A DNA stretch of 64,000 nt from a virus (Duplodnaviria; Caudoviricetes), in the IMG/VR virus record IMGVR_UViG_3300021400_000130, positions 32,001 to 96,000 of that record; one strand, written 5' to 3'. Both the position numbers and the translations under genes were made by a program. The number at the start of each line of letters is the position of its first letter. The stretch's first letter is position 1. A model generated the notes under the pieces. That model was not told where the DNA came from, did no database searches, and saw only the letters and a list, made by a program, of their open reading frames with translations. Shown piece by piece: positions 14,298-35,994 of the stretch.

Positions 14298-14669
14298 ATG
14301 AAATTTATACTAAAGGAAAGTCTTAATACAATTTATTATACTTTATTCCCTTCTTGGAACGGAGAAGGAGAAGTTGAGTGGGAATATAGTCCAACTCTTG
14401 ATGATGAAAAAAGATTTACAGATGTAATAATGAAAACATACTCCAAAGACACTCTTGAAGAACTTTTAAAAGATGCTCTTTCGGATGATTATTCAAATCT
14501 TGAGATAGAAGAACAGACAGCAGAATTAAGAGATCTTGTATTTGAAAATCTTGATTTATTTGATGAAGATGCTTATGACTTCTTCTACGATGATGCCCTT
14601 GAAGATTATGAAGAGCAATCTTCTTACGGTAATGATAACGGATCCGGAATGTCGGACAGAGATTTTTAA
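14298..14669 (+). CDS. Acidic hypothetical protein with LxE leader (putative head-internal protein)
   Basis: GAGG RBS; N-terminus MKFILKES; highly acidic. Confidence 0.6.
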   Translation: MKFILKESLNTIYYTLFPSWNGEGEVEWEYSPTLDDEKRFTDVIMKTYSKDTLEELLKDALSDDYSNLEIEEQTAELRDLVFENLDLFDEDAYDFFYDDALEDYEEQSSYGNDNGSGMSDRDF

Positions 14670-14680
14670 GGAGATTAACT

Positions 14681-16309
14681 ATGAATATTGATAAGATTAT
14701 GGAAGATATTCATCAGCTGTTACCTTCTACATGTGAGATGGATGATCTGTCATGGAATAATGAAGGAACAATGATGAGAACTCGTGTGTATAAAGTTAAC
14801 ATGAGCAAGATTCCAAAGCCTTTTGACCCTAATAGATATATTGAAGCGGTTTCTCCAATTTCTAGTGAAACAAAGAGGAGAATAAAAGCATACTTGCAGA
14901 ATAATGCTCTAGAGTATGAGTTTGGTACAGACTGGGAGGGCTATCCTACTCTTAAAATCTGGGAAGAAGCAGATATGATGGAAGATATACGGAAAAAGAG
15001 AAAAGACACAGCAGGTTTCTTTTCCACCTTGTTCCCCGGAGATCCTGAGAAAGATGCAAAAAGATTTAACAATAGTGTAAAAGATTGTGAAACTCCTGAA
15101 GTTTCGGATAGCGGTTCTTCTCCTGCTATTTCTGAAAGTTTCTCCGACACAAATTGGATGTATATATCTGATGTCATTGAAGGAATGATGGGCAACATGG
15201 ACGATGACGACATTGATAGAGATCTAAGAATATTCAAAAGAATAGCTCAGAAATTACAGGTTCGTAATATGGACGATGTTGTCGTTGTTATTGATAGCGA
15301 TTCAGAATATGATCCTCAGTATTATATAACTGAAGTTGGTCAAAAAGTAGGACCTGTTTATAAAAACTCTGATGATTTGATTGAATATGAACTATTTGGA
15401 TCACACCTTATTGCTGAAAATCATCCTAATGGTCTATTCTTATATTTTAGAGATAGTGCTTCCGCAAAGAAGTATATTGAAGCTGTAGAAAAACTTAATG
15501 AAAGTTTTTCCAATCACCGTTCTTTAACTGAAAGCTCTGATAGAACTGCCCTTATTGATAAGATTAAATCTTTTGGTAAGAACTATGACTTCGATAAGTA
15601 TACTGACCAACAGCTATTTAGAATTGTTAATAGATTGAAAGACAAAGCAGAAATAGAGGACGTCATGAAAGAATTTGCTGAAAAAAGAAAACAGAATGAG
15701 CAAAGAAAGTACGATTCAGAATATGACATTCCCGACGAAACTTATGTAGAAGAAGCTTTAACAGTAAGAGATAAACTAAGCCGTTTAGATGAACAATGTT
15801 TGGACAACGGAAGATATCTTGATCTTAGAAATTTGTTTGAAGCTGTTTCTCCTACAATGACACCTGAGGAAAAAGAAGAACTAAGAAAAGTAGTTAATGC
15901 TACAAATGATCCCGATATTATCTCTGCTTATCTGAATGGAAAATATGAAGAAAAAGACGAAAGTTTACAAGAAGATTTTGAATCTAATCTTTTCAGAAAA
16001 CTTGAATGGGCTGTTGGAGACTTCCTTGAATTCTGCGAAGCTGTTGAATGGGCATTTCCTGAAGGCCTAATCTTTGATGGATGGAAAGACTGGATAGATG
16101 ATAATGCAATGTCACTTCCTGAAGAGTCTGTAGAGAGCGCCGAAATCCTACTTAATGAATATAAACATCTATATGAGGTGAATAAAGAGTTACAGGATCA
16201 TGAAGTAGATGATTGGGAAACAAACGCTTTTCTTGAGTTATATGAAAATATGCGTTCTGCTTATGATGCAGCAATAGAAGAGTGGGAAAAGAACCACGCA
16301 GGAGAGTAA
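14681..16309 (+). CDS. Acidic multi-module protein (putative head-internal polyprotein)
   Basis: N-terminus MNIDKIMED; internal ISES, LNES, LTES, VEEA, LFEA, LQED motifs between segments. Confidence 0.55.
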   Translation: MNIDKIMEDIHQLLPSTCEMDDLSWNNEGTMMRTRVYKVNMSKIPKPFDPNRYIEAVSPISSETKRRIKAYLQNNALEYEFGTDWEGYPTLKIWEEADMMEDIRKKRKDTAGFFSTLFPGDPEKDAKRFNNSVKDCETPEVSDSGSSPAISESFSDTNWMYISDVIEGMMGNMDDDDIDRDLRIFKRIAQKLQVRNMDDVVVVIDSDSEYDPQYYITEVGQKVGPVYKNSDDLIEYELFGSHLIAENHPNGLFLYFRDSASAKKYIEAVEKLNESFSNHRSLTESSDRTALIDKIKSFGKNYDFDKYTDQQLFRIVNRLKDKAEIEDVMKEFAEKRKQNEQRKYDSEYDIPDETYVEEALTVRDKLSRLDEQCLDNGRYLDLRNLFEAVSPTMTPEEKEELRKVVNATNDPDIISAYLNGKYEEKDESLQEDFESNLFRKLEWAVGDFLEFCEAVEWAFPEGLIFDGWKDWIDDNAMSLPEESVESAEILLNEYKHLYEVNKELQDHEVDDWETNAFLELYENMRSAYDAAIEEWEKNHAGE

Positions 16310-16313
16310 ACAT

Positions 16314-17351
16314 ATGAAAGTAAATAATCTTAATGAATACTGGGACAAAATTGAAGACACTCCTTATTATAAAGTAGCCTCTAAACCTGTTATGGATAGT
16401 GACGGGTTTTGGACGGAATACACAATGTATTACAACGAGGACGAAGATAATTATTTCTTCATTTTTGGAGACAGTGATTTATATGGTCCCGATCCTGCAT
16501 ACGCTGATTGGGAATGTGAAACAAATGAGGAAGCTGTTGAATGGTACAATAGCTACAATGGATTTGAAGATGAGGATGAGGACAGCTCTGATTCTTTTGA
16601 ACTAGATGATGAAGATGTTGACGAGAGTTTAGAAGAAAAATTAACAATAGACGAAGATTTGTTTGATATTGTGGAACTTCCTCAGGCTGACCCTACTCCC
16701 GATCTTCCAGTAGTTGAAACAGATTCGGAACCTAGTAAAGAAGTTGCAAACCAAGGACCAGAATTTGGTGTAGCTGATCTACTTAACAATTTAATTTCTT
16801 CAAACTGGGATTTAAATAGCTCTTACAATGAGTTAATTGTTAACGCAGAAGCAAACAGTATGAATGATATTGCTAATGTAGCAAAAGATATATCTGCTGA
16901 TATAAATAATCACATTGGAAAATTACAAGCAGCTCTTTCTACTATCTGCCCAAGTGTTGAGAATATAAGTGTAGGAGAGGAAGAAGCAGCACAACAACTT
17001 GAACCTTCTGCTCCTGAAGTAAATGAAGCTTTATCTGATGAGGACAAAGAACGTCTAGAAAGAAAAGGAACTGTCAGTAGAAAAATAGTTCAAAAACTAA
17101 ACAATATTGTATCAAAATACAATGGCTGGCACGAGCCTTCTGAAATTCGTCACATGTGGGAAGAGCTTACAGACGAAGGCGTAGAAGTCGGAATGATCTC
17201 AGGATACGGTCAACAAGCTGCTGATGGCGGGAGAAGTTGGACTGTTGATTGGTCATTAGAAGGAATACCTGTTATGAACAGTATGTTTGTTTATTCGTTC
17301 TACGAACCACAAGAAGAATCAAAGAATGAGTACTTAATGTATTTTTCCTAA
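16314..17351 (+). CDS. Acidic multi-module protein (putative head-internal)
   Basis: MKVNNLNE leader; VDESLEE and VNEA linkers; central helical segment ending DINNHIGKLQ is weakly ferritin-like. Confidence 0.55.
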   Translation: MKVNNLNEYWDKIEDTPYYKVASKPVMDSDGFWTEYTMYYNEDEDNYFFIFGDSDLYGPDPAYADWECETNEEAVEWYNSYNGFEDEDEDSSDSFELDDEDVDESLEEKLTIDEDLFDIVELPQADPTPDLPVVETDSEPSKEVANQGPEFGVADLLNNLISSNWDLNSSYNELIVNAEANSMNDIANVAKDISADINNHIGKLQAALSTICPSVENISVGEEEAAQQLEPSAPEVNEALSDEDKERLERKGTVSRKIVQKLNNIVSKYNGWHEPSEIRHMWEELTDEGVEVGMISGYGQQAADGGRSWTVDWSLEGIPVMNSMFVYSFYEPQEESKNEYLMYFS

Positions 17352-17364
17352 GGAGAATAAATAG

Positions 17365-18663
17365 ATGAAGATTAAGAAATTAGTAGAAGAAATTACTAAC
17401 TTTGATAATATTAAAGATCTTAAAGTAGTAACTGATCCTATAACTGGTGATGCAATTGAGGCTTCTAAGAAAGCCCAAGATGAATTTGATAAAGTTACAA
17501 CACCATTCAAGAAACCCATTACAGGTACAAAAGACGATGAGAAGTCAAAGGCGGCAGACCTGAAAGAGGCTATTGAAAGTGATGGATGGGAATTAGAGGA
17601 TTCTCACATATCAGAAGTCCTTATGAGATGTGCTGCTCTTAAGTATGAGATTGACAACTGTGTCAGAGGTAGCTATGAGACCAAGGGTGCTGATACCTAT
17701 AGTGAGCTTGCTGTTTATGTTCGTGATCTTGCTAACGATTTGATGGACTGTGCTGAAGAACTAGCAGAGATGGACAACGATATCGGGTATGATAAAGATC
17801 ATTTTCTTGATGAAAGTTTTGATTGGTCAAACGGAAGTTTACAAGACTTTGATCCAGAAGATTTGATGGAGAAAGTAAAGAAACGTCAAATGTCGTTATT
17901 TACTCGTAGAGAGTTTGGAGATAAAGTATACGACATTTCTATTCATCCTCATGGTCGTGTTGATCAACCTACTGATATATGGATAGATATTATCTCTGAA
18001 GACGAGCAAGGTAATCAAGACAGAACATTCCTGAAGAAATTCTTAACTTATGACGAAGCTATTAACGCTATGAAAGAATGGAAAGAAAAAATAGTTGACT
18101 CTCAAGTAGACTCTGTTGTTAAAGAAGCTTTAGGAGAAGATGACTCTGACCCTATGGACTCAAAACTTTCTGATAAAGAGTCTGATATTCAACTAATAAT
18201 GTGGTACTTTGGTGTAGATCATCAAAAGGCTGAGGATAGATTGAACTCAGGTTTTTATAGCACAGCTGATATAGAAAAGGCAAAGAAATATCTAAATAAG
18301 AAACAAACTGCATCGTTAGAAGAAGATGGTCGTCAGAATAGATTAAATCTTACTCCAGAACAAAAAGCAGAAGAGAAAGCAATGGCAGCAACACTTTTTG
18401 ACCGTGTCTACAATGAATTAGAAAAAGACACAGATGGTTCAAAAAATCGTGTAAATAGGAAAGCTTCTCAAAGATATAATACGGAAGATATTTCAACTGA
18501 TGTAAATGGGAATATTGTTGTTTATTCCGATAGCAGAGATAAACTACAGAATGCAGTTAATGTTGCTAAAGAATATAACCTTCAGTATAAATTAGGTCCT
18601 GGTAGTATGAGAAATAAGGCTCATGCTTTCCAGTGTGTACTGTTCATCCCTGAAGAAGAATAA
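17365..18663 (+). CDS. Acidic multi-module protein (putative head-internal)
   Basis: MKIKKLVEE leader; LKEA, LDES, VKEA/LGED and LEED linkers. Confidence 0.55.
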   Translation: MKIKKLVEEITNFDNIKDLKVVTDPITGDAIEASKKAQDEFDKVTTPFKKPITGTKDDEKSKAADLKEAIESDGWELEDSHISEVLMRCAALKYEIDNCVRGSYETKGADTYSELAVYVRDLANDLMDCAEELAEMDNDIGYDKDHFLDESFDWSNGSLQDFDPEDLMEKVKKRQMSLFTRREFGDKVYDISIHPHGRVDQPTDIWIDIISEDEQGNQDRTFLKKFLTYDEAINAMKEWKEKIVDSQVDSVVKEALGEDDSDPMDSKLSDKESDIQLIMWYFGVDHQKAEDRLNSGFYSTADIEKAKKYLNKKQTASLEEDGRQNRLNLTPEQKAEEKAMAATLFDRVYNELEKDTDGSKNRVNRKASQRYNTEDISTDVNGNIVVYSDSRDKLQNAVNVAKEYNLQYKLGPGSMRNKAHAFQCVLFIPEEE

Positions 18664-18677: not shown

Positions 18678-19127
18678 ATGTATAGAGTTGACCAACACAA
18701 AAATATCTATTTAAGTAGAGGCGACGATTTCAGCTATACATTCCCCGTTTATGTTGATAATGAAACAACAGCATACCACTTTGAACAAGATGACGGTTGT
18801 ATGCTGTTTTTCTATATTTTTCTTCCTAATTCTATCAACTATGAATTTGTATTAAGAAAAACATTCAAGACAGACGGAGAAATTATTACTGAAATAGTTG
18901 ATGAATATGAATCCGAAGTTACAACAGGAAATGACAATGTTGATAAAAACGGTAACATTATTGTTAGATTAACTCCTAGTGACACAATGTCAATTCGTCC
19001 CGGTCAGTATAAATATCAAATAAGAGTACAAGTACTTGACAAGGATAATAATCTTGTATTAAAAACAGTTACCAATAGAAAAGATTTTTATGTAATTGAG
19101 GATGATTATAGCGACAGAGTGTGGTAA
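18678..19127 (+). CDS. Hypothetical virion protein, Ig-like/BppU N-terminal-like
   Basis: IYLSRGDD...IVRLTPSDT..I.PG.Y.YQI pattern typical of this fold. Confidence 0.5.
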   Translation: MYRVDQHKNIYLSRGDDFSYTFPVYVDNETTAYHFEQDDGCMLFFYIFLPNSINYEFVLRKTFKTDGEIITEIVDEYESEVTTGNDNVDKNGNIIVRLTPSDTMSIRPGQYKYQIRVQVLDKDNNLVLKTVTNRKDFYVIEDDYSDRVW

Positions 19128-21199: not shown

Positions 21200-23122
21200 A
21201 TGGACGAAATAAAAGATCAAAATTCAGTATTTGCTGATGGTACTGATATATATGGAACTAGAATAAATCCTGTTCCTGCTCCTCAGAAGACAATCGGAGC
21301 TGATACTTCGGGCGAATTCTATGATGCTCTTATTAATGGTGTTAAATCAAGTATGATGGACATCAGTAAGTTGGAGTCCTTCAGTCAAGTTTCTCAGAAT
21401 AGAGAGATGCTATATGAAGTAATTGACACTATGTGTGAAGATACTACAATAGCTGCAGCACTTGAAATATATTCTGAGGACTCTACTGAAACAGCTGAGA
21501 CTGGAAGAATAGTATGGTGTCAGTCCGACGATGAAGCAGTTTCGAAATATATCACATATCTATTAGATGTGTTGAATGTTGATAAGAATATATTTAAATG
21601 GGTATACTGTTTGTGCAAATATGGGGATCTTTATTTACGTCTTTATAGAGAATCTGACATGGAGGATAAACTGTTCGCAACTGAGTCCAATTCTGAGCAT
21701 AGAAAAGATCTAAGAGAACAGTTTGAACATTTAGATGATCCAAAAGAACCTGTAAATGAATCTGTTACAGTACATGCTTATAATGCTAATGACAGATATG
21801 CCCAGTATGTCGAGATGGTACCAAACCCCGCAGAGATGTTTGAGTTAACAAAGTTTGGAAAGACTTATGCTTATATCAAAGCCCCTGTTAGAAATGGTGT
21901 AGAAAGAACACAAGATTCTATAAGTGTTCCGATGTGGAGATATATGTTTAAGAAGAGCGATGTTTCTGTTTACGATGCTACTACATTTGTTCACGCTTCT
22001 CTTGAGGACGATTTTCAAAGATTTCCCGAATATGTTGATATATTCTTAGACGACAACATTGAAAATACTGGCGAGGATAATAAACTAAGTTATACAGTTC
22101 GTCATGGTCAGTCAATACTATATTCTGTTTATAAACTTTGGAGATCCTTAACACTGTTGGAGAATTCATTACTTCTTAACAGGTTAACAAAGAGCTCAGT
22201 ATTGAGAATTATAAATGTTGAAGTAGGAGATATGCCTAAAGAGAATGTTGGTAAACATATGATGGGCATAAAGGCGTTGTTTGAACAGAAAGCAGCTCTT
22301 GATACTGGAAACATAATGTCCGAGTATACAAATCCAGGACCTATGGAGAATTGTATTTATGTTCCTATTCATAATGGAATAGGAAATATTACTCCACAAC
22401 AAGTTGGCGGAGATGTTGATGTTAAAGGACTTAGCGACATTGATTATTTCAAGAATAAATTATACAGTGGTTTAAAGATTCCTAAACAGTATCTTGGTGA
22501 CACTGATGATAGCGCTGGGTTCAATGGTGGAACTGCACTTTCTTTAATTTCTTCTAGATACGCTAAAACAATAAAGAGGATTCAAAGTACTATAACTCAG
22601 TTAATTACTGATCTGATAAATTTAATGCTTTTGGATAAAGGTCTATTAGCTTATGTAAACAAGTTCACAATTAAAATGCAACCTCCAACAACACAAGAAG
22701 AGATTGATAGAAGAGACAACATGTCTTCTAAAGTAGGAGTTGCTCAAGACATCATGAACTTACTAGGCGACATTGAAGATCCTGTTCAGAAGTTAAAGAT
22801 ACTAAAGATATTACTTTCTGAGATTATAAGTGATCCCGAGGTAATAGATGTAGTACAAGAAGAAATTGATAGATTAGAAGCAACTCCAGAAATGGAAACA
22901 ACTGACGACGATGACTCCTCAATGGACATGGACATTAGTATGTCCGGTCCTAGAGGCCCAAGATCTTCACTCCCCATTGATAATATGAACATATCCCCCG
23001 AGGAGGGTTCAGAATCTGAATTTGGAGAAACTGAAGCTGAAGGATCACCAGAAGAGATGATCTCACAACTTCCTTCTCCAGCAGATTTAGGAATTGATAT
23101 GACAGACACAGCAAACATGTAA
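21200..23122 (+). CDS. Portal protein (T4 gp20-like)
   Basis: Follows terminase; IAAALEIYSED, LCKYGD.Y, GQSIL..VYKLWR.L.LLE, INVEVGDMP, DIDYFKNKLYSGLKIPKQYL; acidic C-tail. Confidence 0.88.
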   Translation: MDEIKDQNSVFADGTDIYGTRINPVPAPQKTIGADTSGEFYDALINGVKSSMMDISKLESFSQVSQNREMLYEVIDTMCEDTTIAAALEIYSEDSTETAETGRIVWCQSDDEAVSKYITYLLDVLNVDKNIFKWVYCLCKYGDLYLRLYRESDMEDKLFATESNSEHRKDLREQFEHLDDPKEPVNESVTVHAYNANDRYAQYVEMVPNPAEMFELTKFGKTYAYIKAPVRNGVERTQDSISVPMWRYMFKKSDVSVYDATTFVHASLEDDFQRFPEYVDIFLDDNIENTGEDNKLSYTVRHGQSILYSVYKLWRSLTLLENSLLLNRLTKSSVLRIINVEVGDMPKENVGKHMMGIKALFEQKAALDTGNIMSEYTNPGPMENCIYVPIHNGIGNITPQQVGGDVDVKGLSDIDYFKNKLYSGLKIPKQYLGDTDDSAGFNGGTALSLISSRYAKTIKRIQSTITQLITDLINLMLLDKGLLAYVNKFTIKMQPPTTQEEIDRRDNMSSKVGVAQDIMNLLGDIEDPVQKLKILKILLSEIISDPEVIDVVQEEIDRLEATPEMETTDDDDSSMDMDISMSGPRGPRSSLPIDNMNISPEEGSESEFGETEAEGSPEEMISQLPSPADLGIDMTDTANM

Positions 23123-23904: not shown

Positions 23905-24810
23905 ATGGGTCTTACATCAAGAGAAAAGAAATTGCTTTCGCAGTTTGCAAACAATAATTACGGTCTCTATAACAAAACACTTGCAAAAAAGTTAGGTCTT
24001 CATGAAAGTATTTTTCTTGGAGAGATCATATCTGAATATGATTACTGGAGTAAAAGAAGAGAGTTAACAAAAGATGGTTACTTCTATAGCACGCTAGAAA
24101 ATGTTACAGAGGCAACTACACTTTCTGAATACCAACAAAGGTCTATTGTAAAACATCTGATACAGTTACATATAATTGACATGAAGATTGCGGGAATGCC
24201 CGCAAAGAGATACTTCAAGATAAATGAAGAAGAGCTATATAATGTTATAATCGAAGAGGATGTTCCTCAAGTTGTAGTGAATCAGAACTTAACTGAGTTA
24301 GTAACAAGTTCTAAAGAAAGTAAAGAACAAGATCTTAACTTAGTAAGGACAAATAATAACAATACAACAATAACAACAAATAATAACAATATTGAAACTG
24401 TTCCGTTTACAAGTATGAGTAGTAAATCAAATCTTCTTGAAGAAGGAATTAATCAGAATACTAGTAAGCCAAAGAGAAAATCTAATAAGGAACAGTGTAT
24501 TGACACAACATATGAAGTTATACACGATGCAGCACTAGCAGAGTATATTAATAGTTATCTAGTGGATCAACAATTGTATAAATCAATAAATAGTACACAA
24601 TGGAAAATGAGACTTGAAAATATTATCAAGTATGCTCAAGGAAGTATTGATTTAGCAAAAGAAATTGTAAAACAAACTTGGATGCGTGGATATAGAGATT
24701 TCTATCCAGTTACAACTACACAGACTGCAACTAAGCCTGCTTATACTGCAATTACTAGAAGCGAAGTAACAAATGACGCTCCTAAAGTAAGTGAAGATAT
24801 AATTTTTTAA
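23905..24810 (+). CDS. Phage replication initiator-like protein (N-terminal winged HTH)
   Basis: NKTLAKKLGLHESIFLGEI...DGYFYST......TTLSEYQQRSIVKHL....II......MPAKRYFKIN resembles Firmicute phage replisome-organiser N-termini; central Asn/Thr linker with DNA repeats. Confidence 0.7.
   Translation: MGLTSREKKLLSQFANNNYGLYNKTLAKKLGLHESIFLGEIISEYDYWSKRRELTKDGYFYSTLENVTEATTLSEYQQRSIVKHLIQLHIIDMKIAGMPAKRYFKINEEELYNVIIEEDVPQVVVNQNLTELVTSSKESKEQDLNLVRTNNNNTTITTNNNNIETVPFTSMSSKSNLLEEGINQNTSKPKRKSNKEQCIDTTYEVIHDAALAEYINSYLVDQQLYKSINSTQWKMRLENIIKYAQGSIDLAKEIVKQTWMRGYRDFYPVTTTQTATKPAYTAITRSEVTNDAPKVSEDIIF
24282..24391 (+). repeat. Iteron-like repeats plus A-rich direct repeat (putative origin) inside the initiator-like gene
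   Basis: Three degenerate 23-bp units at 24282, 24305 and 24328 (tcagaacttaactgagttagtaa / caagttctaaagaaagtaaagaa / caagatcttaacttagtaaggac); perfect ACAAATAATAACAATA repeat at 24349 and 24376. Confidence 0.45.
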
Positions 24811-24952: not shown

Positions 24953-26482
24953 ATGAATAAGAATTCTAATGAAGAACTAAAATTTGATAATTCAGCTGTG
25001 CTTAGCGAAAAAGGCAGCCCTATATTAGGACGGTTGTCTGGGCCTGTTGCTGACATAATAAATCCAACAAGAAATGGAAGAAAGTATTCCGAAAAACTTT
25101 GGGAGAATGTTTTTAACAGCCCTATTGCACAGGAAACATTTGAAAACGGTGGATATTTCGGAGAGTTAGGTCACCCTGAAGGTCGTCAGGAAGTAGACAT
25201 GGAAAAGATTGCTATTTGCATGCCTAAGCCTCCTGTAAAGAATAGTGACGGTCAGTTGATTGGCAGCTTTGATATTCTAGATACACCAAATGGTCGTATT
25301 CTGAAAACACTTTGTGACTATGGTTACAGAATGGGTATTTCCTCTCGTGGTTCCGGAGAAGTTTCACTGGACATGGAAGGAAATGAAGCTGTTGATGAAG
25401 ACAGTTATGATTTCAGCTGTTTCGATGTAGTGTTACTTCCAGCTGTGAAAGCAGCCCGTATGGATTATGTAACTGAGTCCTTAGGTGACGAAAAAGTTAC
25501 ACTGAAACAAGCACTTGCAGAATCGTTAGACAAAGCAAATGATTCTGAAAGAAAAATTATGCAAGAGACGTTGAGTAATCTTCATCTTGAGTATATTCCA
25601 GAAGAGGTAATTAAAGTTAATGACGAAACGCCTGCTTCTGTTAATAATATAGAAGTTGTCGAAGAAAGCGTTGCAGTCGACAATAACGAGGCAGAACTTG
25701 TTGAGCAACTTCAAACCCTTATACGAGAGAATAAGGAAAAAGAAGAGCAGATAATTGAGTTACAAGAAAAGTTATCAGTTAGTTATACTAAAGAGGCTGC
25801 ATGTAATGAAAAGATGTCTAGATACCAACAGGCAATTCTGAAATTATCTGAAGACTCGAAGAAAGTCAAATCTCTCGAAGAACAGTTGAGTAAAGCACAA
25901 ACAGATCTTTCTAATGTTAAACAATCGCTTGTAGAATCAGAGAAAGCTTCAAAAGATCGCCAGGCCAAACTCCAAGAGAAATCAAAATCACTTGTTGAGT
26001 CTGTTGATAATAGTAAAAGAAAGATTAAAGAGTTGCAAGAACAGTTAAAGGCCGCTAATGAAAATAGTAATAGCGAAATTAACTCTCTAACAGAGCAACT
26101 TTCTAGTGCTAAGAAAGACTTAGAATTAAAGAAGACTGAATACTCGAAAAAACTTAGTGCTTCAAATAAGTTAGTTGAAAAGTATAAAACAATTGCATCT
26201 GGTGCAGTTAATCGTTATATTGAGTCACAAGCACTAAGATTAGGTGTATCTCATAATGAAATTTTGAATAGATTGCCTGATAGTTATACATTTGATGACA
26301 TTGACACAGTGTGTGAAAGTTTACAGTCTGTTAATCTGAATCTTAGTAAACTTCCGTTTCAATCAATGAAACTTGAAGGAAAATTAGGTGCTAGAGTTTC
26401 ATCTCCTAAGAAGTCTGTTTTACCTGGTAATCAAGATGATGTAGTTGATGATGATCTTTTAGCTCTAGCGGGATTAAAATAA
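24953..26482 (+). CDS. Prohead protease (T4 gp21/S77-like) fused to coiled-coil scaffold
   Basis: NGRKY, FGELGHP, ILDTPNGRIL, GISSRGSG, FDVV..PA motifs; C-terminal ~300-aa coiled coil with VTES, LAES, LVES, LTEQ, VCES sites. Confidence 0.9.
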   Translation: MNKNSNEELKFDNSAVLSEKGSPILGRLSGPVADIINPTRNGRKYSEKLWENVFNSPIAQETFENGGYFGELGHPEGRQEVDMEKIAICMPKPPVKNSDGQLIGSFDILDTPNGRILKTLCDYGYRMGISSRGSGEVSLDMEGNEAVDEDSYDFSCFDVVLLPAVKAARMDYVTESLGDEKVTLKQALAESLDKANDSERKIMQETLSNLHLEYIPEEVIKVNDETPASVNNIEVVEESVAVDNNEAELVEQLQTLIRENKEKEEQIIELQEKLSVSYTKEAACNEKMSRYQQAILKLSEDSKKVKSLEEQLSKAQTDLSNVKQSLVESEKASKDRQAKLQEKSKSLVESVDNSKRKIKELQEQLKAANENSNSEINSLTEQLSSAKKDLELKKTEYSKKLSASNKLVEKYKTIASGAVNRYIESQALRLGVSHNEILNRLPDSYTFDDIDTVCESLQSVNLNLSKLPFQSMKLEGKLGARVSSPKKSVLPGNQDDVVDDDLLALAGLK

Positions 26483-26507: not shown

Positions 26508-27827
26508 ATGACACTTTTAGAGCAATATAAAGGTCGTCTTGCCGTTTCTGAGTCCGTTTACGGAAAGACTCACGCTGGCGAGAAGATGGACAATCACAAG
26601 AAATTAGTTATTGCTAAAGTCCTTGACAATACTTCTAAGTTTATCGCAGAGGCATTTGATGCTGCAAGTGGTACTCAGAGAAGTGATCTTGGTCTTTACA
26701 AGAAATTCACTTTAAATCTTACAACCGTAGCACTTCCTAACCTGATCGCTCATGATCTAGTTATCGTGCATCCAATGAGCTCAATGAGCGGTTTCATTAC
26801 CTACATTGAGTATTCTGCTAGCAAGACCAAGGGTCAGACCACTGCTGGTAAGTTCCTGAATAGCCCCTTCGCTCTTGGCGATGTGGATCCCGACTACACT
26901 GGTGACAGAGTTGTTGAGAATGCTGCTGCTGGTGCTTCTCTTGTTCTTTCTTGGACTCCTGTTGTTAAGGAAGCTTTCGAAGACGAAGCAACCGGAACCA
27001 AGTATGATGTGAAGATTACTCACGCTGATGGTACTGTTGACTTTGCAAATGTTGGTGCTGATGGGAAGACCGTCACTCCTTCTGCTGCTTTCGTAGCTAC
27101 TGACCGTGTAGCTTACTTCTACGACAATATTGTTGTTCCTCAGAACGATCTGCCTATGCTTAAGGCTGAGATGAAGAACATCGCTCTCGTGGCAAAAGCT
27201 CGTAGAATTGCTGTTTTCTATTCTCAGATCGCTGCTTTCCAGGCTAAGACCGATTATGGTTTCGACCTTGGTGACCAGCTTGCAGAAAAAGCTGTTGGAC
27301 AGTTAGAGTACGAGATTGACACTGAGATCGTTCAGTTGCTGATTGACAATGCTCCTACTGATGAGACTCTGTCTTGGAGCAAGACCCTTCCTGTGGGCGT
27401 TTCCAAGTCTGAGCACTATCAAGGATTTATGGAAATCGTTGAAGATGCTAAGAGAATCGTGTATGACCGTACAAAGAGATTTGTTCCTAACTACATGATC
27501 TGCGCTAGCGATCTTATCCCTGTGTTCTCTTTCATTCGTGACTGGAATCCTGCTCCTGTAAGCGATGTTAATGGTCCTTACTTTGCTGGTACTCTCGGTT
27601 CACTGAAAGTATTCGTTTCTCCTGCACTCGACGCTGGTAAGTTCTTAGTTGGTGTCAATGGTTCCGACATGATGTCCAGCGCTGCTGTTTATGCTCCTTA
27701 CATGGCTGTTGTTCCTACTATGCTGCTTCAGTATGCAGATGGTGGTACATCACAAGGTTGGAGCACAATGTACGACCTGAAGATGCTGAACGCTAACCTG
27801 CTCGTTGCTGGTGGCATCACAGCTTAA
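26508..27827 (+). CDS. Major capsid protein (T4 gp23-like)
   Basis: PNLIAHDLVIVHPMSSMSGFI, AKARR, EIDTEI, AVYAPY motifs; strong codon bias; follows protease; FIAE-A candidate propeptide cleavage site. Confidence 0.93.
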   Translation: MTLLEQYKGRLAVSESVYGKTHAGEKMDNHKKLVIAKVLDNTSKFIAEAFDAASGTQRSDLGLYKKFTLNLTTVALPNLIAHDLVIVHPMSSMSGFITYIEYSASKTKGQTTAGKFLNSPFALGDVDPDYTGDRVVENAAAGASLVLSWTPVVKEAFEDEATGTKYDVKITHADGTVDFANVGADGKTVTPSAAFVATDRVAYFYDNIVVPQNDLPMLKAEMKNIALVAKARRIAVFYSQIAAFQAKTDYGFDLGDQLAEKAVGQLEYEIDTEIVQLLIDNAPTDETLSWSKTLPVGVSKSEHYQGFMEIVEDAKRIVYDRTKRFVPNYMICASDLIPVFSFIRDWNPAPVSDVNGPYFAGTLGSLKVFVSPALDAGKFLVGVNGSDMMSSAAVYAPYMAVVPTMLLQYADGGTSQGWSTMYDLKMLNANLLVAGGITA

Positions 27828-27937: not shown

Positions 27938-28675
27938 ATGAAAAATGTTCTAAAAGAAGATTTTCAAGTACATGACACACTAAATCCTAAATTGTGGGAT
28001 AGTGAAAATAAATTACTACCTGAAGTTCGTCAGAAGATTGTAGATATTGTAGCTAATTTTGAGGAATATGTAGAAATACCAATACATATTGTTGACATCG
28101 TTCTGGTAGGAAGTAACGCCGCATATAATTACACTCAATATTCAGACTTAGATGTTCACATTATAGTTAACCCTGAGTTGGTTACAGATATTCCTGAAGA
28201 AGTACAAGTTCTTATATATAATATGAAAAAGTCTTCTTTCAATAAAGAGTTTGATATTAAGATAAAAGGGATAGCTGTTGAACTATATGTAGAGGATATG
28301 CACACCTCAGCTGTTTCCAATGGCATATATTCTGTGTGTGATGATAGATGGGTAAAAGAACCAAAACAGAATACTTCCATAACTAAACACAATGTTGAAA
28401 AAGATGTAGAAAATTGGGTTGAAAGAATTGAAGAATCTATAGCTACTAGTGATAGTGAAACAATTGGAAATACAGTAGATATATTGTATTTAATGAGGAA
28501 GAACTCTATTGCTACAGAGGGTGAATATGGAAAAGGAAATGAAGTATTCAAAACCTTAAGAGATAGAGGATATGTCAAGAAGCTGAAGGAAGCACTTAAT
28601 AGTGCTATTTCTTCTAACCTGTCTCTTGAGTCTTATACATATACAGGAAAATTCATAAATCTATTCGAGGAGTAA
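27938..28675 (+). CDS. Nucleotidyltransferase (Pol-beta superfamily) with LxE leader
   Basis: VLVGSNAAYNYTQYSDLDVHI (GS...DxD) plus a third carboxylate in VELY; leader MKNVLKED. Confidence 0.8.
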   Translation: MKNVLKEDFQVHDTLNPKLWDSENKLLPEVRQKIVDIVANFEEYVEIPIHIVDIVLVGSNAAYNYTQYSDLDVHIIVNPELVTDIPEEVQVLIYNMKKSSFNKEFDIKIKGIAVELYVEDMHTSAVSNGIYSVCDDRWVKEPKQNTSITKHNVEKDVENWVERIEESIATSDSETIGNTVDILYLMRKNSIATEGEYGKGNEVFKTLRDRGYVKKLKEALNSAISSNLSLESYTYTGKFINLFEE

Positions 28676-28679: not shown

Positions 28680-28991
28680 ATGAATAAATTAGTACTAGAA
28701 GAGTCTTTGAATACTCTCAATGAACAAGAATTAAAAGAAGCGGATTTTAGGGATGTTAGAAATAAAGTTGATGAATTTCTTGAGAACTATTACGAGCGTA
28801 AAGTATTTGAATTTCTAACAGAAGAACAAGCAACTGTGCAAGAAGTTATGCAAGCTGTACCTGAGTATAATCCAGATTGGTGCCCAGAGGACTACACTGA
28901 TGAAGTAGCAAGAATTGAACAAACTTGCGGAGAGTCTATGATTAATGCACTTGTGAGTGCAGGATTAAGAACTTTGTTTCTTGATGCGTAA
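28680..28991 (+). CDS. Small acidic protein with LxE leader
   Basis: MNKLVLEESLNTLNEQELKEA contains several LxE motifs; GAGG RBS. Confidence 0.55.
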   Translation: MNKLVLEESLNTLNEQELKEADFRDVRNKVDEFLENYYERKVFEFLTEEQATVQEVMQAVPEYNPDWCPEDYTDEVARIEQTCGESMINALVSAGLRTLFLDA

Positions 28992-29035: not shown

Positions 29036-29902
29036 GTGAATAGACTTTTAGAAGATAAAAGACAAGAGTTAATAACAAAATCAAAACATGCAGATAATTA
29101 TGCTCCTAGTAATCAATATCTTGGAAAGAATAGATACGAAAGAAGATTACATAGTAAAGTAGCAAACTCTGTTAGAGAAATGAATGCTATTAATATGAAT
29201 AAATTCTTTCAAGATAATATTCTAGACGTAGATATAAAAGTACGCGGCGAAACAGATGACTATATTGTTAGAATTAGTTTTGGCGGAGTACTTGATGAGA
29301 TACATAAACAGATTGAAAGTAACAATGGTGCCCTGAATTTACGATGTGTAATTAGAGCACTTGTTTCTGCTTTTAACGGAGATAGCGTTTATGTAAGATG
29401 TAGCTGTGCGGACTTTAAATATCGTCAAGCATATTTCCTAAGCGTGCATGACGTAATTGTTGGAGAGAAAGAAACTAGGCCTTCGGATATAACTAATCCT
29501 TATGATACAAAAGGGAGAGGTTGTAAACATATATTATTAGTATTATCTAATAATAGTTGGTTAACAAAAGTTGCTTCTGTTATTTTCAACTATATTAACT
29601 ATATGGAAAAACACTATCAGAATTTGTATGCTGATATAATCTATCCTGCGATATATCAAACAGAATATGAGGGAGATGTTCAGTTACAGATTCAAGAGCC
29701 CGAACCAGAAGAAGAGCCTGAACCTGAACCTGATGTATCTGTTAAGGCAGATAAAGATTTACTTGATATTTCTAATAAGTGGGCTAAAACGAAAAATCAA
29801 TTCCAGAAAGGTAACGAATATCGTTTCCAGAAACAAGACAGACCAATGAAGCGTCAAATTGATTTTGATAATTTAATCTCCGATTCGGAGGGAGTAACTT
29901 GA
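29036..29902 (+). CDS. SWIM zinc-finger domain protein with LxE leader
   Basis: VRCSCADF...GCKHIL (CxC...CxH); GTG start, GGAGG RBS; leader MNRLLED. Confidence 0.7.
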   Translation: MNRLLEDKRQELITKSKHADNYAPSNQYLGKNRYERRLHSKVANSVREMNAINMNKFFQDNILDVDIKVRGETDDYIVRISFGGVLDEIHKQIESNNGALNLRCVIRALVSAFNGDSVYVRCSCADFKYRQAYFLSVHDVIVGEKETRPSDITNPYDTKGRGCKHILLVLSNNSWLTKVASVIFNYINYMEKHYQNLYADIIYPAIYQTEYEGDVQLQIQEPEPEEEPEPEPDVSVKADKDLLDISNKWAKTKNQFQKGNEYRFQKQDRPMKRQIDFDNLISDSEGVT

Positions 29903-30414
29903 AGTTTAGATTAGTTGAGGAAAAGATTCCTATTTATAGAGGAGTTATAAAAGGATTAGCTCCGAATGTTTCTGGACCCGGTAGAGCAGAATGGTGGACT
30001 TACAGCGAAGACCAGGCTACTTCATACTGGAAAGACGGTACCGATGAGGAAGGTGCTGTACTAAGTTCATTTCTTGATTTAGATAAGGTAAATCTTATTG
30101 ATCTTGGTAAACAAAAGGATATAACAAGTGCCTATTTAAGTGCTAAATTAAATAACATATTAAATACAGAGATCGTAAATCAAACTAAAGATCTTGTATT
30201 TATAAAGTATAATGGAACAATTTATAGGATGACAAAAGGTCTAGATGACCTACAAACTTTCTATCATATAGTAGCAAAACAAGAAGGCTATGATGGATTG
30301 TTAATCCAGTTTATGATAAAAGGTGAACTTATAACAGAGATTGCATTATTAAGATCTGGTCTTGTTGAATATGATGCCCCTGAATGGTATAATAAACAAT
30401 GGGACAGAAAATGA
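29899..30414 (+). CDS. ADP-ribosyltransferase-fold protein (putative) with LxE leader
   Basis: IYRG...WWT....A..Y...G.V......GYDGLLI......EIAL resembles phage ART/ART-PolyVal signatures; leader MKFRLVEE; TTG start overlapping the previous stop. Confidence 0.55.
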   Translation: MKFRLVEEKIPIYRGVIKGLAPNVSGPGRAEWWTYSEDQATSYWKDGTDEEGAVLSSFLDLDKVNLIDLGKQKDITSAYLSAKLNNILNTEIVNQTKDLVFIKYNGTIYRMTKGLDDLQTFYHIVAKQEGYDGLLIQFMIKGELITEIALLRSGLVEYDAPEWYNKQWDRK

Positions 30415-30450: not shown

Positions 30451-32241
30451 ATGAGTGTAAAAATTCTAACAGAAGGATTTGAATCCAAATATTTCTATAT
30501 CCTGAAAGAGGATGCTATTAGACAGATAACCTCTATTCTTTCTAATCTGAACGAAGCAGAAATGTCAGATGAAGATAGAGAAGAGACCAGAATACTGAGA
30601 CAGATTTTAGATAAAGCTATGGATGCTTCTTATGACAGACGTAAAGCATTGAAGTATACTCCTAGAGAGCTTGAAGTTGCAGATAAGTACAATTTAACAT
30701 TACCTGCAAAAGTTAAGAAATGGGACGGAACTACAATAACTTCGTTATCCGATAAAGATGTAGATACTCCTAGAGGTACTGGTAGAGATAGATATACTCC
30801 TTCTCTTTCAAGAGACATTGAAAAATCTGGTATTAGAAACAGTCGTCAGGCTAACCTCGCTAACTTTATACGTGCTCGTAAAGAAAAAGGTCCTAGAAAT
30901 GAGCGTCCTTATTCTCAGATAGATAAATTTGCACGTGTTGATGACGCTTCTACATTTGGAGATACAACATTCACGCACGACAACTCTGGAAGATTTGGTA
31001 GAGATCGTTGGGATGAGGAACATGGTAGAGCTGCTACACTTGCAGGCGGAAGAAGCAGAACTCCTTCAGGAAGATGGATACGCGATAAGGAAAAAGATCT
31101 TACCGACGTTGAAAAAGACAGAATTGCTGTTAATAAACAGATGTCCCAGCCTGTTAACGATATGAAGAAAGCTCTGTCGGATCGTAAAGAGAATCAGAAA
31201 GATTTAGACAACGTCAATCTTAACTACGCTAGAAATGTTGCAAATGCTCGTAGACGTTTTGATGATGACATGGCCTATGCAGAAGAGAGAAGAAAGAAAG
31301 AGTCTGAGTCCGGTCGTCAAGGAGTAGACGATGCTAACAACAGAATTAATAAACTTCTGAAGAAAGAATCACTTGAAGAGGACGAAGTAGACTATAGTGA
31401 TTGGAAGTATGGTGATCCATATTCTCCCGAGGATCCAGATGACTATGTACCATTTGACGAAGAGTTAGATATTGATCCTAGTAAATCAGATGACATTGTT
31501 ACTGAAGAGATGTTTACAGAAGCATTTTCAATAAGATTAAGAAATACAATTAACTCTTTGAATGAAGCTGAGATGTCAGACGAAGATAAGCATGATACAG
31601 ATATTCTAAAGCAGATATATCAAAAAACTCAAGGTAGAGCAAATGCTGCTTTAACTCCTGAAGAGAAATCTGTATTACAAAAGTACAATCTTGAGAGAGT
31701 TCCGTATATGAAGAATATTCGTTCTTCTGAGGGTAGTTACAGAACTCCGATATTTGATGACAGAGACTTCCAAAGTTCTTATGATTGGAACAGTGGAAAG
31801 AGAATTCCTCCGAAGTCAAATAAGATAAACTATGCTGACAGAGCACGTAAGCGTCCTGAAAGAGATGCTCAGATGTACGATATGAGAGATAGAGATTTCT
31901 GGGATATGCCAACTCCTGATTATGAACGTCAGCATGAAGTTGATTCTGATGATTACAAACCTGCAACATATCAGCAGAGACAGAGATATTCTGACAATCA
32001 GAAGATGACTCAGAATGTTAGAGACATGACAAGAGCTCTTAGAGACAGAAAGGCAAGCCAAGCAAAAATTGACAGTGCTGATGCTGAACATCAAGCAGAG
32101 CTAGATAAGTTGAAGAAAGAATATGAAGATAGACTTGCAGCAGTTAAACGTAGTCAGCAGTATCGTACAGATTCAGATCGCAGACAAGTAGATTACGCTA
32201 ATAAACGTATTAACAAACTCCTTAGAAAAGAGGAAGAATAA
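30451..32241 (+). CDS. Putative head-internal protein with two tandem homologous modules
   Basis: Leader MSVKILTE; both modules begin LNEAEMSDED..(ET/DT).IL.QI and end AN.RINKLL.KE. Confidence 0.6.
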   Translation: MSVKILTEGFESKYFYILKEDAIRQITSILSNLNEAEMSDEDREETRILRQILDKAMDASYDRRKALKYTPRELEVADKYNLTLPAKVKKWDGTTITSLSDKDVDTPRGTGRDRYTPSLSRDIEKSGIRNSRQANLANFIRARKEKGPRNERPYSQIDKFARVDDASTFGDTTFTHDNSGRFGRDRWDEEHGRAATLAGGRSRTPSGRWIRDKEKDLTDVEKDRIAVNKQMSQPVNDMKKALSDRKENQKDLDNVNLNYARNVANARRRFDDDMAYAEERRKKESESGRQGVDDANNRINKLLKKESLEEDEVDYSDWKYGDPYSPEDPDDYVPFDEELDIDPSKSDDIVTEEMFTEAFSIRLRNTINSLNEAEMSDEDKHDTDILKQIYQKTQGRANAALTPEEKSVLQKYNLERVPYMKNIRSSEGSYRTPIFDDRDFQSSYDWNSGKRIPPKSNKINYADRARKRPERDAQMYDMRDRDFWDMPTPDYERQHEVDSDDYKPATYQQRQRYSDNQKMTQNVRDMTRALRDRKASQAKIDSADAEHQAELDKLKKEYEDRLAAVKRSQQYRTDSDRRQVDYANKRINKLLRKEEE

Positions 32242-32870: not shown

Positions 32871-32883
32871 TTAGTTAAATAAA

Positions 32884-32905: not shown

Positions 32906-32940
32906 TACATATCATGTTTAATGAAAGGTGAGTATAATAG

Positions 32941-33678
32941 ATGACAAATGCTGAAGTTCGTGAAGAAGTCACATTAATGCTCACAGGTAGATTACTTGAT
33001 CTAGAGCTCGAACCAAATACGCTCGACAGTATTATAAAAAGTTCTCTAAGAGAGTTACAAAGATATATTACTAGTACAAAGATTATAACAATTCCGTTTA
33101 GTAGATGTATTGATCTTTCAGATCCGACACAAACAAACGATACACAACTACATGTAAGTAATGTATTTAGAGTATATAGACCTAATGGTTACTCAGGAGA
33201 GAATACTTCTATGACAACCGTATTAGATCCAATACAAGCGTCACAGTGGCAATTGATTTCTGGTATGGGTAACATGAGAGGATTTCAAGATTACACATTG
33301 AATTATGCTTCTTGGAACACTCTTCTCCAGATGAGGAATACAAGTAGTACTGATTTAGCCTACATATTTGATAGAGACTCGCAAAAATTGTATATAAATG
33401 TTGCAAGTAATGCACCAAGTAGTATAACAATAGAATACATTCCAATATTTCAAGATGTTTCTGAAATAAATTCTGATTATTGGATTGATGTTCTAATTAG
33501 AATAGCAGTTGCTAAAACAAAAATTGTGGCAGGAAGAGTTAGAAGTAGATATACACAATCTAATGCAATATGGTCACAAGACGGAAAAGACATTCTTGCA
33601 GAAGGTACTGCCGAATTACAAGAATTAAGAGAAACATTATCCTCAAATACAGCTTTATTCTATAATGCCGTAGATTAA
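32941..33678 (+). CDS. Neck/head completion protein (T4 gp13-like)
   Basis: LDLEL....LDSII...L at the N-terminus; W.....A.AK.K...GRVRSRY.......DG..IL.EG..EL..LRE.L at the C-terminus. Confidence 0.75.
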   Translation: MTNAEVREEVTLMLTGRLLDLELEPNTLDSIIKSSLRELQRYITSTKIITIPFSRCIDLSDPTQTNDTQLHVSNVFRVYRPNGYSGENTSMTTVLDPIQASQWQLISGMGNMRGFQDYTLNYASWNTLLQMRNTSSTDLAYIFDRDSQKLYINVASNAPSSITIEYIPIFQDVSEINSDYWIDVLIRIAVAKTKIVAGRVRSRYTQSNAIWSQDGKDILAEGTAELQELRETLSSNTALFYNAVD

Positions 33679-33722
33679 GGATACTAGATTATTATTCGGA
33701 TAAATAATGAGGAGATTAATAA

Positions 33723-34979
33723 ATGAATTATCTGAGTGAAGCTTTCAAGAAATTAGATTTTCTGAATGAGGATGATTTTTCACTTGACAATGCCTCCGAC
33801 ATTGATGATATGAGCCAATTTTTGTCAGTGGAGAGAGATTCCGTACAAGATGTAATTGATCCTGAAGCTGAAAGTGAAGAAGAATTAGAAGATACTTATA
33901 TTGGAAAAGTTATTCTTCATTGTCCAGTGTGCAATTCAATGATCTATAAAGATCTTGAAGATATTGAAAGAGACGATGAAGAAGAACTTGTTAATGTTGG
34001 GGAAGAATGCCCTTATTGTTACACTTCTGACGGATTTGAAGTGATTGGTATTGTAAGCCCCTTTAAAGAAGAGTCAGAAAAAGAAGAGATAGAAGCTTCT
34101 GATGAAGCTGAAGCAGACGAAAATGTCGAGGGTTCAGACGAAGTCGAAGTTGAGGATAAAGTAGTAGAAGAATCAGTTGAAGAGTCCGTTGGAGACTCTA
34201 TTTCTGAATATCAGAAGTGGGTAGACTTTGATATGGAAAAATATCATAAGATATCCGATGTTACAATGAACAAGCTAAAGGAAGCTGGATTATCAGTAGT
34301 TAAAGATCAGTACGGAGACTATGAGGTAATAGCTGACAAAAAAGAAGAATCATTAGGTGAAGATTTTGAACATGTTGAAGTTTCAACTGATGAACAAAAG
34401 TTAGTTATGGACGCTGAAGAAGATGGTAAGATTACCATTGAAAGCGAACCGGTTGCTAATGAAGCTGACGTAGCTGAGAATGAATTTATTCAGCCCGTTC
34501 CTGATCTGGTAAAAGACGAAATTGAAGCTCCAGAAGCTGAGGAAACTGCAGAAGTAGAAGCTGAAGAAGAAATCCCTTTTGAGGATGACGAAGTTGATTA
34601 TGACATTGACGATTTCGATGAAGAGTCTTTCGATGGTCTCGGTGAAGCCTATCTTAAAAAGGTTTACGACAACGTAGCTTCTTACAAAACTTCAAATGTT
34701 TCTATGAAGGACAATTCCCTTGTTGTTGAAGGTGTCATTACATTTAATTCTGGTAAGACTAGAACTACTAATTTTATCTTTGAAGCAAAAACAGCTACAA
34801 AAGGTAAGAAACTTTGCTTCATCGGTGAAAACAAACAAATTACCAGAGGTCGTAAAGCCTTTACAATTACAGGCACATTGAACGAAAGTAAATCGTTTAT
34901 CACTGAAAAATTTAACTACAATTATATGGCCAAAAATTCTGAGGGTAAATCTAAAAGACTTTACGGCACATTGAAATAA
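33723..34979 (+). CDS. Acidic prohead core/internal protein with Zn-ribbon
   Basis: MNYLSEAF..LDFLNED leader; CPVC...CPYC; VEES, VEES, LGED, LNES sites; very acidic. Confidence 0.55.
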   Translation: MNYLSEAFKKLDFLNEDDFSLDNASDIDDMSQFLSVERDSVQDVIDPEAESEEELEDTYIGKVILHCPVCNSMIYKDLEDIERDDEEELVNVGEECPYCYTSDGFEVIGIVSPFKEESEKEEIEASDEAEADENVEGSDEVEVEDKVVEESVEESVGDSISEYQKWVDFDMEKYHKISDVTMNKLKEAGLSVVKDQYGDYEVIADKKEESLGEDFEHVEVSTDEQKLVMDAEEDGKITIESEPVANEADVAENEFIQPVPDLVKDEIEAPEAEETAEVEAEEEIPFEDDEVDYDIDDFDEESFDGLGEAYLKKVYDNVASYKTSNVSMKDNSLVVEGVITFNSGKTRTTNFIFEAKTATKGKKLCFIGENKQITRGRKAFTITGTLNESKSFITEKFNYNYMAKNSEGKSKRLYGTLK

Positions 34980-34992
34980 TAAGGAGAACATC

Positions 34993-35994
34993 ATGAAATT
35001 CAAACAAGTAAAGAATTCTCCAGAATTATTGAAAGAATCTCTTAGATGGCCTTCAGGAAAAGACCTTGAAAATGCTTGTGACGTGATTGAAAAGATGTTA
35101 CAAGACAGCGAAAGATTTGAGCTTACAGACGAAGAACAATCTATACTAAGTCAAGCATACGATATTATGTTCTGGATTGCTCCCAATCTTGAAGAAAGTT
35201 TGAAAGAAGCTGCTGATGAGCCTGAAAATCTTCTTGACGAATCTATAAGAAAGTATTCCGTACAAGAATGGATTGACGAACAAGGCTGGGCTCCAGATGA
35301 TGTGGACGATGATGAAGTAGCTTTCTTTGCTACAGAAAGTGGTCCTGTTTGCGGTTCAAAACATAAAGATGGAACTTATAGTGTATTTGGATTAGGACAG
35401 GATAAAGATGGGTTATCATATAAACAGATGATTAAGATTCTTAATGTCTGGGACTCATTGAACGAATCAAAAGATGTCAATCTTTCTGACAAAGAAAATA
35501 GCATCAGCGGCCTCCTTCTTGATCATAAAGATGAAATTGATTCCGCTTCGTCACAAGCTGAGTTAGTTAACGTGTGCAAGAACGCCCTTGCTGAAAAAGG
35601 CGGAGCTAAAGCACAACAGTTCTTAGCTGTACTAAACAGCAAGAAGAATCATTATGCAGCGCTTAAGTATGTGTATGATTTTATTCTTGCTGGAGAAGGT
35701 ATGAGGTCTGCTGATTCAAGAAGAAAGACTAAGCCTGCTCACATGAAAGAAGAATTAGAAGAAGATTTTTCAAATGAGCAAGAACTTATTGACGCTGGAT
35801 TTGAACAAGCAGGTCATAGAAAACAGTATGACTTTTATCGTAAACTAGTTGATGGAAAAGGTAAATGGTATGCTGTTGATACAGAAGAAGGAAAAGTTTT
35901 TCCTATAACTTGGGATCAAGCAGTTGGATATGAACCCATTGATTCTACAGAAGGTATGGCAATGAAGCTTGGTAATATGCTTCTTCCACAGTAA
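34993..35994 (+). CDS. Multi-module protein (putative head-internal polyprotein)
   Basis: About four 50-90 aa segments delimited by LKES, LEESLKEA/LDES, LNES and MKEELEED. Confidence 0.55.
   Translation: MKFKQVKNSPELLKESLRWPSGKDLENACDVIEKMLQDSERFELTDEEQSILSQAYDIMFWIAPNLEESLKEAADEPENLLDESIRKYSVQEWIDEQGWAPDDVDDDEVAFFATESGPVCGSKHKDGTYSVFGLGQDKDGLSYKQMIKILNVWDSLNESKDVNLSDKENSISGLLLDHKDEIDSASSQAELVNVCKNALAEKGGAKAQQFLAVLNSKKNHYAALKYVYDFILAGEGMRSADSRRKTKPAHMKEELEEDFSNEQELIDAGFEQAGHRKQYDFYRKLVDGKGKWYAVDTEEGKVFPITWDQAVGYEPIDSTEGMAMKLGNMLLPQ

Follow-up and report, generated by a model that had tools for sequence, protein, structure and literature searches.

Head genes and leader-bearing open reading frames of an uncultured gut phage

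The DNA analysed here (the window) is a 64-kb stretch, bases 32001-96000, of a complete-looking 153.6-kb phage contig from an uncultured gut phage, and nearly all of its genes are carried on the + strand. Its head genes are accompanied by eleven open reading frames (ORFs), referred to below by their first base, whose predicted products carry an [L/I]-x-E motif close to the N-terminus. Four of these candidates (14298, 14681, 16314 and 17365) occupy 14298-18663 upstream of the terminase on the + strand, and the others (27938, 28680, 29036, 29899, 30451, 33723 and 34993) lie beyond the capsid gene, from which a run of ORFs reaches to the neck, sheath and tube genes. We interpret the motif as a probable site of the prohead protease encoded in the same head module.

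By sequence similarity this head module is of the T4 type, with a gp20 portal, an S77 (gp21) protease fused to a scaffold, and a gp23 capsid protein. The portal gene (21200..23122, +) matches Pfam Portal_T4 with an E value of 4e-44, and its product has no leader. The 509-aa product of 24953..26482 (+) joins a prohead protease domain (Peptidase_S77, residues 37-176) to a coiled-coil, scaffold-like C-terminal part; a first-pass annotation of this DNA had placed the head protease here, and the assignment is borne out by matches to Pfam PF03420 (39.2 bits, cutoff 27, E 6.6e-10) and to PHROG 207, head maturation protease (E 4e-38). By correspondence with T4 H85/S140, the domain has a putative His74/Ser130 pair. 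The [LIV]-x-E sites that the same annotation quoted for the protease-scaffold and the capsid protein are present. In the whole protease-scaffold there are 23 [LIVM]-x-E sites, compared with 13.9 +/- 3.0 in shuffled sequences (P 0.003), and the scaffold part alone has about twice as many as the shuffles predict (P 0.0006; 19-23 sites versus 10-14 expected).

The major capsid protein (26508..27827, +) is identified by Pfam Gp23 (E 1.5e-26), and we predict from its sequence a maturation cut after Glu48, at I-A-E|A-F. This site (residues 46-50) is the sole L/I-x-E within residues 16-134, with further sites after Glu5 and Glu15, and it lies near the position expected from an alignment in which capsid residue 69 corresponds to residue 31 of mature T4 gp23. 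The aligned column reads [LMI]-[NA]-E|A-F across the gut clade and L/T-x-E|[ST] in cultured relatives. Among cultured phages the capsid protein is most like those of Bacillus phages HSE3 and SP-15, Listeria phage LIS04 and Streptococcus phage GXN1 (27-31% identity), followed by those of T4-like cyanophages at ~21-25%. In close relatives (L002:8604-11122, L003:8447-11077 and L008:8730-11032, and also L013, L014 and L016; L numbers denote related loci) the major capsid gene is split by ORFs matching NUMOD3 and SegE-type GIY-YIG, and these insertions are probably intron- or intein-like homing elements; the capsid gene in the window is uninterrupted.

Enrichment of the motif in the head block

The eleven candidates were originally chosen by eye for the motif. 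All of the ORFs and N-termini are present on the + strand at the coordinates given here, with plausible ribosome-binding sites. The Glu ends the tripeptide at residue 6-8 in ten of them and at residue 15 in one (34993, site 13-15), and P3 is Leu, Ile or Met in every candidate and in more than 200 homologs. For comparison with the rest of the genome we used all + strand ORFs that encode 50 aa or more and are preceded by a Shine-Dalgarno-like sequence, and counted [LIVM]-x-E with Glu at residue 4-9, a span that leaves 34993 uncounted. The enrichment that the first-pass annotation anticipated is found: the motif occurs in 14 of the 21 genes within 14298-35994 and in 13 of the 122 genes found elsewhere on the 153.6-kb contig (Fisher p 1.3e-7), a 5-6 fold excess. 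The rate outside the block, ~11%, equals the chance expectation of ~10% from internal motif density, and none of 1e5 permutations produced ten motif-bearing genes in a row, as are seen here.

Several trivial sources of the shared N-termini can be set aside. Richness in Glu and Leu is rejected as the cause by composition-preserving shuffles, which expect 1.6 of the eleven candidates to carry the motif where 10 do. Paralogy is likewise rejected, as all-against-all BLAST links only 32246 with 32691, and wrongly chosen start codons are unlikely because there are ribosome-binding sites and hundreds of homologs with the same start. Three further motif-bearing genes of the block, 32246, 32691 and 32941, are not counted as members of the set, since the Glu is lost in their distant orthologs, and are probably chance cases; without them the enrichment persists (p 3.8e-5).

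Conservation of the leaders in related phages

Related loci were collected from an IMG/VR scan with the capsid protein (17 loci), with 6 more found via 14681 and 80 more via the 29036 family. An extended leader belongs to 30451..32241 (+, 596 aa), which starts MSVKILTEG with the extended form L-T-E|G-F and contains a repeated, charged and uncharacterised domain at residues ~19-156, 212-307 and 347-595, each copy preceded by L-N-E|A. The domain has no match in Pfam or PHROGs, and internal sites fall after Glu35, Glu357 and Glu372. At 50% identity the C-terminal domain spans at least 169 clusters, and of 150 family representatives 123 start with a leader of the form hydrophobic-K-x-[LMI]-N-E-[GSA]-F-x-[KR]-x-[YF], the core of which is the motif at the predicted capsid maturation site. 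A leader profile covering positions P4 to P3' and built only from foreign homologs of 30451 ranks that capsid site 4th among the 2293 internal Glu residues of the genome. When 30451 itself is left out, 12 of the top 20 internal matches fall in the ten other candidates, the protease-scaffold or the capsid protein, compared with 3.5 expected (P 2e-5).

At the N-termini themselves the extended leader consensus gives 20.7 bits for 33723, the top score in the genome, 15.9 bits for 30451 and at most 2.5 bits for the other candidates. The product of 33723..34979 (+) is a conserved, very acidic protein of 418 aa (net charge -75) that starts MNYLSEA and has two sites, after Glu6 and Glu16; among its 1527 homologs the 22-residue N-terminus is nearly invariant and the middle varies in length. 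The idea of a portable tag common to all the candidates, put forward in the first-pass annotation, therefore fits 30451 and 33723, which share the extended leader; for most of the candidates such a tag is not established, because they have only the tripeptide in common, at a distance of 4-8 residues from the start, and in some nucleotidyltransferase homologs of the 27938 family the piece that would be removed is no longer than 4 residues. Among relatives the 28680 family and some extra genes also have the extended leader, and related phages encode many more unrelated families with such N-termini between the capsid and sheath genes.

Two further candidates can be assigned to recognisable classes. 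The product of 27938..28675 (+, 245 aa; start MKNVLKED, L-x-E ending at residue 7) is predicted to be a nucleotidyltransferase of the Pol-beta superfamily with an ANT/CD-NTase-like two-domain fold, and is the only recognisable enzyme in the set. The Pfam NTP_transf_2 score of 21.3 bits is just over the cutoff of 21, the G-S..D-x-D..E signature is invariant (G58, S59, D70, D72 and E115), and an AlphaFold2 (AF2) model with a predicted local distance difference test score (pLDDT) of 85.6 matches AadA/AAD(9) and CdnE in Foldseek with probabilities up to 0.98. The product of 29036..29902 (+, 288 aa; start MNRLLED, L-x-E ending at residue 6) is a conserved protein with 935 homologs and a SWIM zinc-finger signature, C-x-C-x(n)-C-x-H, with C122, C124, C163 and H165 invariant across 51 sequences. 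Pfam SWIM is matched weakly, by 17 of those 51 members and with a best E of 0.004, and for the fold of this protein Foldseek returned no match with E <1 and VIA-align none above Z 3.2. In both AF2 models the leader falls inside a low-confidence segment ahead of the fold (residues 1-6 of 27938, with pLDDT <50, and residues 1-4 of 29036). One SWIM homolog, P0118, carries intein domains.

The variability of these two leaders was measured on the 120 best-scoring homologs of each family, anchored on the Glu. Among the 92 anchored sequences of the 120 best of 582 nucleotidyltransferase homologs the entropies are 0.96 bits at P3, 3.13 at P2 and 0 at P1, and the remaining 28 missed the anchoring pattern only, L-x-E being present there too. 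For the SWIM family (119 anchored of the 120 best of 935 homologs) the corresponding values are 0.25, 2.69 and 0 bits. The Glu stands at residue 4 to 11 in the nucleotidyltransferase homologs and anywhere from residue 5 to 27 in the SWIM homologs. P3 and P1 are thus fixed, and P2, the upstream residues (P4-P6) and the leader length vary, which is the pattern that a T4-type cleavage site predicts. The two proteins are also linked in part of the related loci: they are fused in a single ORF of ~490 aa in 11 of the 80 related loci (e.g. L045:9323-10816), with the L-x-E-D site of the SWIM protein retained at the joint, and their genes are adjacent or 1-2 genes apart in 15 more, from which we predict that they work together; the fusions would point to a complex of the two. 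The description of the leader-bearing proteins as non-core does not hold for 29036 and 33723, which are conserved core genes by their homolog counts, the former occurring in cultured relatives as well.

Most of the candidates are very acidic, with net charges to -75 and many internal sites. Upstream of the terminase are 14298..14669 (+, 123 aa, net charge -26, start MKFILKES, L-x-E ending at residue 7), 14681..16309 (+, 542 aa, net -55, start MNIDKIMED, I-x-E ending at residue 8), 16314..17351 (+, 345 aa, net -62, start MKVNNLNEY, L-x-E ending at residue 8) and 17365..18663 (+, 432 aa, net -33, start MKIKKLVEE, L-x-E ending at residue 8). Beyond the capsid gene the acidic products include those of 28680..28991 (+, 103 aa, start MNKLVLEES, L-x-E ending at residue 7) and 34993..35994 (+, 333 aa, L-x-E ending at residue 15), and 29899..30414 (+, 171 aa) starts MKFRLVEE with the L-x-E ending at residue 7. 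Apart from the nucleotidyltransferase and the SWIM protein, no family or function emerged for the candidates from Pfam, PHROGs, sequence searches of the PDB or the protein atlas. Pieces of 14681, 16314, 17365, 33723 and 34993 recur in metagenomic proteins that bear the 30451 domain, the N- and C-terminal modules of 33723 among them in mosaic proteins, and of all internal sites in the genome the one after Glu274 of 14681 most resembles a leader.

In orthologs of 14298, 16314, 17365, 27938, 28680, 29036, 29899, 30451, 33723 and 34993 the L/I-x-E is kept and its neighbours vary. The 14298 orthologs of L019 and L020/L022 differ at other residues but have the L-x-E, those of 16314 retain it at the likely true start, and those of 17365 do so at 40-44% identity. 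In the 29899 orthologs P2 and P4 are altered around a retained L-x-E; the 28680 orthologs have an extended leader of the L/I-N-E-S-F type, with Phe at P3 in one; and the single ortholog found for 34993 (L001/L031) keeps the L-x-E. The leader of 14681 is kept in its L019 ortholog. Far from the head genes, at 21976-22476 of the contig and upstream of the window, a 166-aa ORF has a leader I-x-E|A-L-N-T like those of 14298 and 28680, and may be a further substrate encoded elsewhere.

Probable prohead-protease sites, rival explanations and comparison with T4

We consider it probable, at roughly 0.6, that the N-terminal [L/I]-x-E motifs are sites of the S77 gp21-like prohead protease of this phage and mark proteins entering the prohead core. 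Sequence comparison favours this explanation because P3 and P1 are fixed in two large families and because a profile built from foreign leaders finds the capsid site and head-module proteins. By analogy with T4, the portal, the protease-scaffold (24953-26482) and the capsid protein (26508-27827) would build a prohead, the core of which the leader-bearing proteins would enter. The activated protease would then cleave [L/I/M]-x-E motifs behind the Glu, and L-N-E|[S/A/G]-F would be its preferred site. It would remove the first 48 capsid residues, shred the scaffold at ~20 sites and clip 4-15 residues from the tagged proteins, some of which would also be cut at internal linkers. The trimmed proteins or their fragments would remain in the head or exit from it. 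Both the cutting and the location inside the head are inferred from the T4 precedent, as are encapsidation and any targeting role of the leaders, and a targeting role is doubtful because most leaders are of 4-8 residues with no common sequence beyond the tripeptide, which is short for an autonomous targeting signal.

A number of observations weigh against this interpretation. The sheath and baseplate-hub families, which are not possible prohead substrates, also conserve an N-terminal [LIV]-x-E, so that the motif alone is not diagnostic: the sheath family (37212-38552) has I-x-I-x-E-x-D at residues ~4-10, and the T4_baseplate-type hub family (39349-40125) has a conserved T-I-A-E that is lost in the window copy. 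The whole genome of GXN1 shows the background rate (20/185), and its head module has one small paralogous family only with such a leader; at most one or two are found in the head modules of HSE3 and LIS04. When the capsid-to-sheath zone and the tail zone of 38 related loci are compared family by family, the difference (28/70 versus 14/45) is not significant, partly because the SWIM gene and small leader genes follow the tube gene in many relatives. The SWIM family adds difficulties of its own, as its gene lies after the tail tube gene in many distant relatives, its homolog in LIS04 is annotated as a tail protein, and its HSE3 homolog is without the leader. In L020-L024 the 14681 orthologs are shorter by the first ~104 residues, the leader included. 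In the literature we found virion proteomics neither for this phage nor for SP-15, LIS04, HSE3 or GXN1, and no link between SWIM proteins and virions. In GXN1, three small ORFs after the capsid gene (L026:4000-6121) and one elsewhere share an 8-residue start ending L-[TN]-E.

It is possible, with a likelihood well short of even, that the acidic leader proteins (14298, 14681, 16314, 17365, 28680, 33723 and 34993, and perhaps 30451) are auxiliary components of the prohead core or scaffold, like T4 gp22, gp67 and gp68, which are cut up and mostly expelled before DNA packaging and so constitute no delivered payload. Such a role rather than that of cargo is suggested because most candidates are very acidic mosaics with internal sites: Asp and Glu make up 20-28% of residues in the set, net charges run from -15 to -75, internal [LI]-x-E sites are numerous and include the best leader-like ones of the genome, and modular domains are shared through metagenomic intermediates; T4 core proteins are themselves cleaved into fragments that exit the head (PMC9026906). 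It accounts less well for the four acidic candidates that lie upstream of the terminase and not beside the protease, and the nucleotidyltransferase with its intact active site and the zinc-finger protein 29036 are unlike scaffold; the mature T4 head, moreover, also retains acidic and processed proteins.

The motif might alternatively be left uncut, as a structural or expression feature of the N-termini of late proteins, such as a first helix turn, which each family would conserve for folding or assembly and which selection acting on virion proteins in common would have clustered. Such a feature is favoured by the sheath and baseplate-hub families, whose I-x-E-type N-termini are kept without plausible access to the prohead protease, as well as by the conserved residues immediately following the Glu in both large families and the L-x-E-D that nucleotidyltransferase-SWIM fusions keep internally as part of the SWIM module. 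We nevertheless regard an uncut motif as improbable: it leaves unexplained the extended motif at the predicted maturation site of the capsid protein, the enrichment in the scaffold and the contrast between fixed P3 and P1 and freely varying P2 and upstream positions, the conserved Leu falls in a segment that AF2 leaves unstructured, and the other 122 genes carry the motif at exactly the chance rate. That the leaders are read by something else, be it a host protease specific for Glu, a chaperone or some step in secretion or export, appears very improbable indeed. The genes stand within the head module of an S77-encoding phage, and S77 relatives all cut after Glu; in a survey of 14298-38552 with Pfam, PHROGs and ORF calls the head-module genes yielded no protease besides the S77 one, and none of the candidate N-termini showed a hydrophobic stretch resembling a signal peptide.

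Cleavage by the phage's own prohead protease has close precedents. T4 gp21 cleaves after the Glu in I/L-x-E (PMC12991175), the N-terminal propeptides removed in T4 range from 7 residues in Alt to 65 in gp23, and in IPIII the first 10 residues are the capsid targeting sequence, with residues 8 and 10 required for processing (PMC9026906). With the T4 set (IPI, IPII, IPIII, Alt, gp24 and gp23) the system described here shares an S77 protease, a gp20-type portal, a gp23-type capsid protein and the L/I-x-E motif, known here from the nucleotide sequence, as well as short N-terminal propeptides (7 residues in T4 Alt, 10-19 in the internal proteins), a motif borne by unrelated proteins of which one is an enzyme (Alt in T4, the nucleotidyltransferase here), and a scaffold with many cleavage sites, predicted in the present case. 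Unlike T4, the phage belongs to a distant lineage, with a capsid identity to T4-like phages in the range given above, and has its protease and scaffold in one polypeptide. Its tagged proteins are more numerous and larger (up to 596 aa), several have strong internal sites, most leaders have the tripeptide alone in common, and two of the proteins are conserved core genes and not part of a hypervariable internal-protein locus.

Many head proteins of phiKZ, 201phi2-1 and SPN3US, ejected ones among them, are trimmed after Glu by a diverged protease of the gp21 type, and the propeptides of these giant phages contain redundant sites (PMC10052503; PMC9026906). The giant-phage proteases prefer a small residue (A/S/G) at P3, as in the A-x-E of SPN3US, and the propeptides that they remove are mostly long (111-254 residues), whereas the sites described here have Leu, Ile or Met at P3 and leaders of 4-15 residues. 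No phiKZ-type head genes turned up in general surveys of the 154-kb genome, in which no search was aimed at them. The principle is therefore known from T4 and phiKZ-like phages, and the present case is a larger, looser variant of it in a gut Firmicutes-type lineage; our literature search found no link between capsid targeting sequences and metagenomic phages.

The first-pass annotation went further and proposed delivery into the host with anti-defence or takeover roles, which is speculation. Extended in this direction, gut Firmicutes phages with T4-type heads would load about a dozen proteins by means of a minimal protease-site leader, namely the nucleotidyltransferase-SWIM pair and a shuffling class of acidic modular proteins, whose precursors would be cut at L-N-E|[SAG]-F linkers and whose products would be injected as takeover or anti-defence factors; we think it rather unlikely that this scheme holds. 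Were the loading and injection true, injected phage proteins could generally be recognised in metagenomes by reading this leader from the sequence. If the cuts alone are real, the head-internal proteins of uncultured gut phages could be identified from an S77 protease together with N-terminal or linker L/I-x-E motifs that match the capsid's own site, the nucleotidyltransferase-SWIM pair and the 30451 family would be candidate packaged factors, and the load-and-clip principle of T4 would extend to a distant Firmicutes-infecting lineage.

The remaining genes of the region follow an order in which a lysis block comes first, ahead of the four candidates at 14298-18663, followed by a small ORF and the large terminase (18678-21178). 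Three small to medium ORFs lie between the portal and the protease-scaffold. Also between the portal and the protease, 23905-24810 encodes a 301-aa protein that matches replication-initiation O-like PHROGs and contains 11 [LI]-x-E sites.

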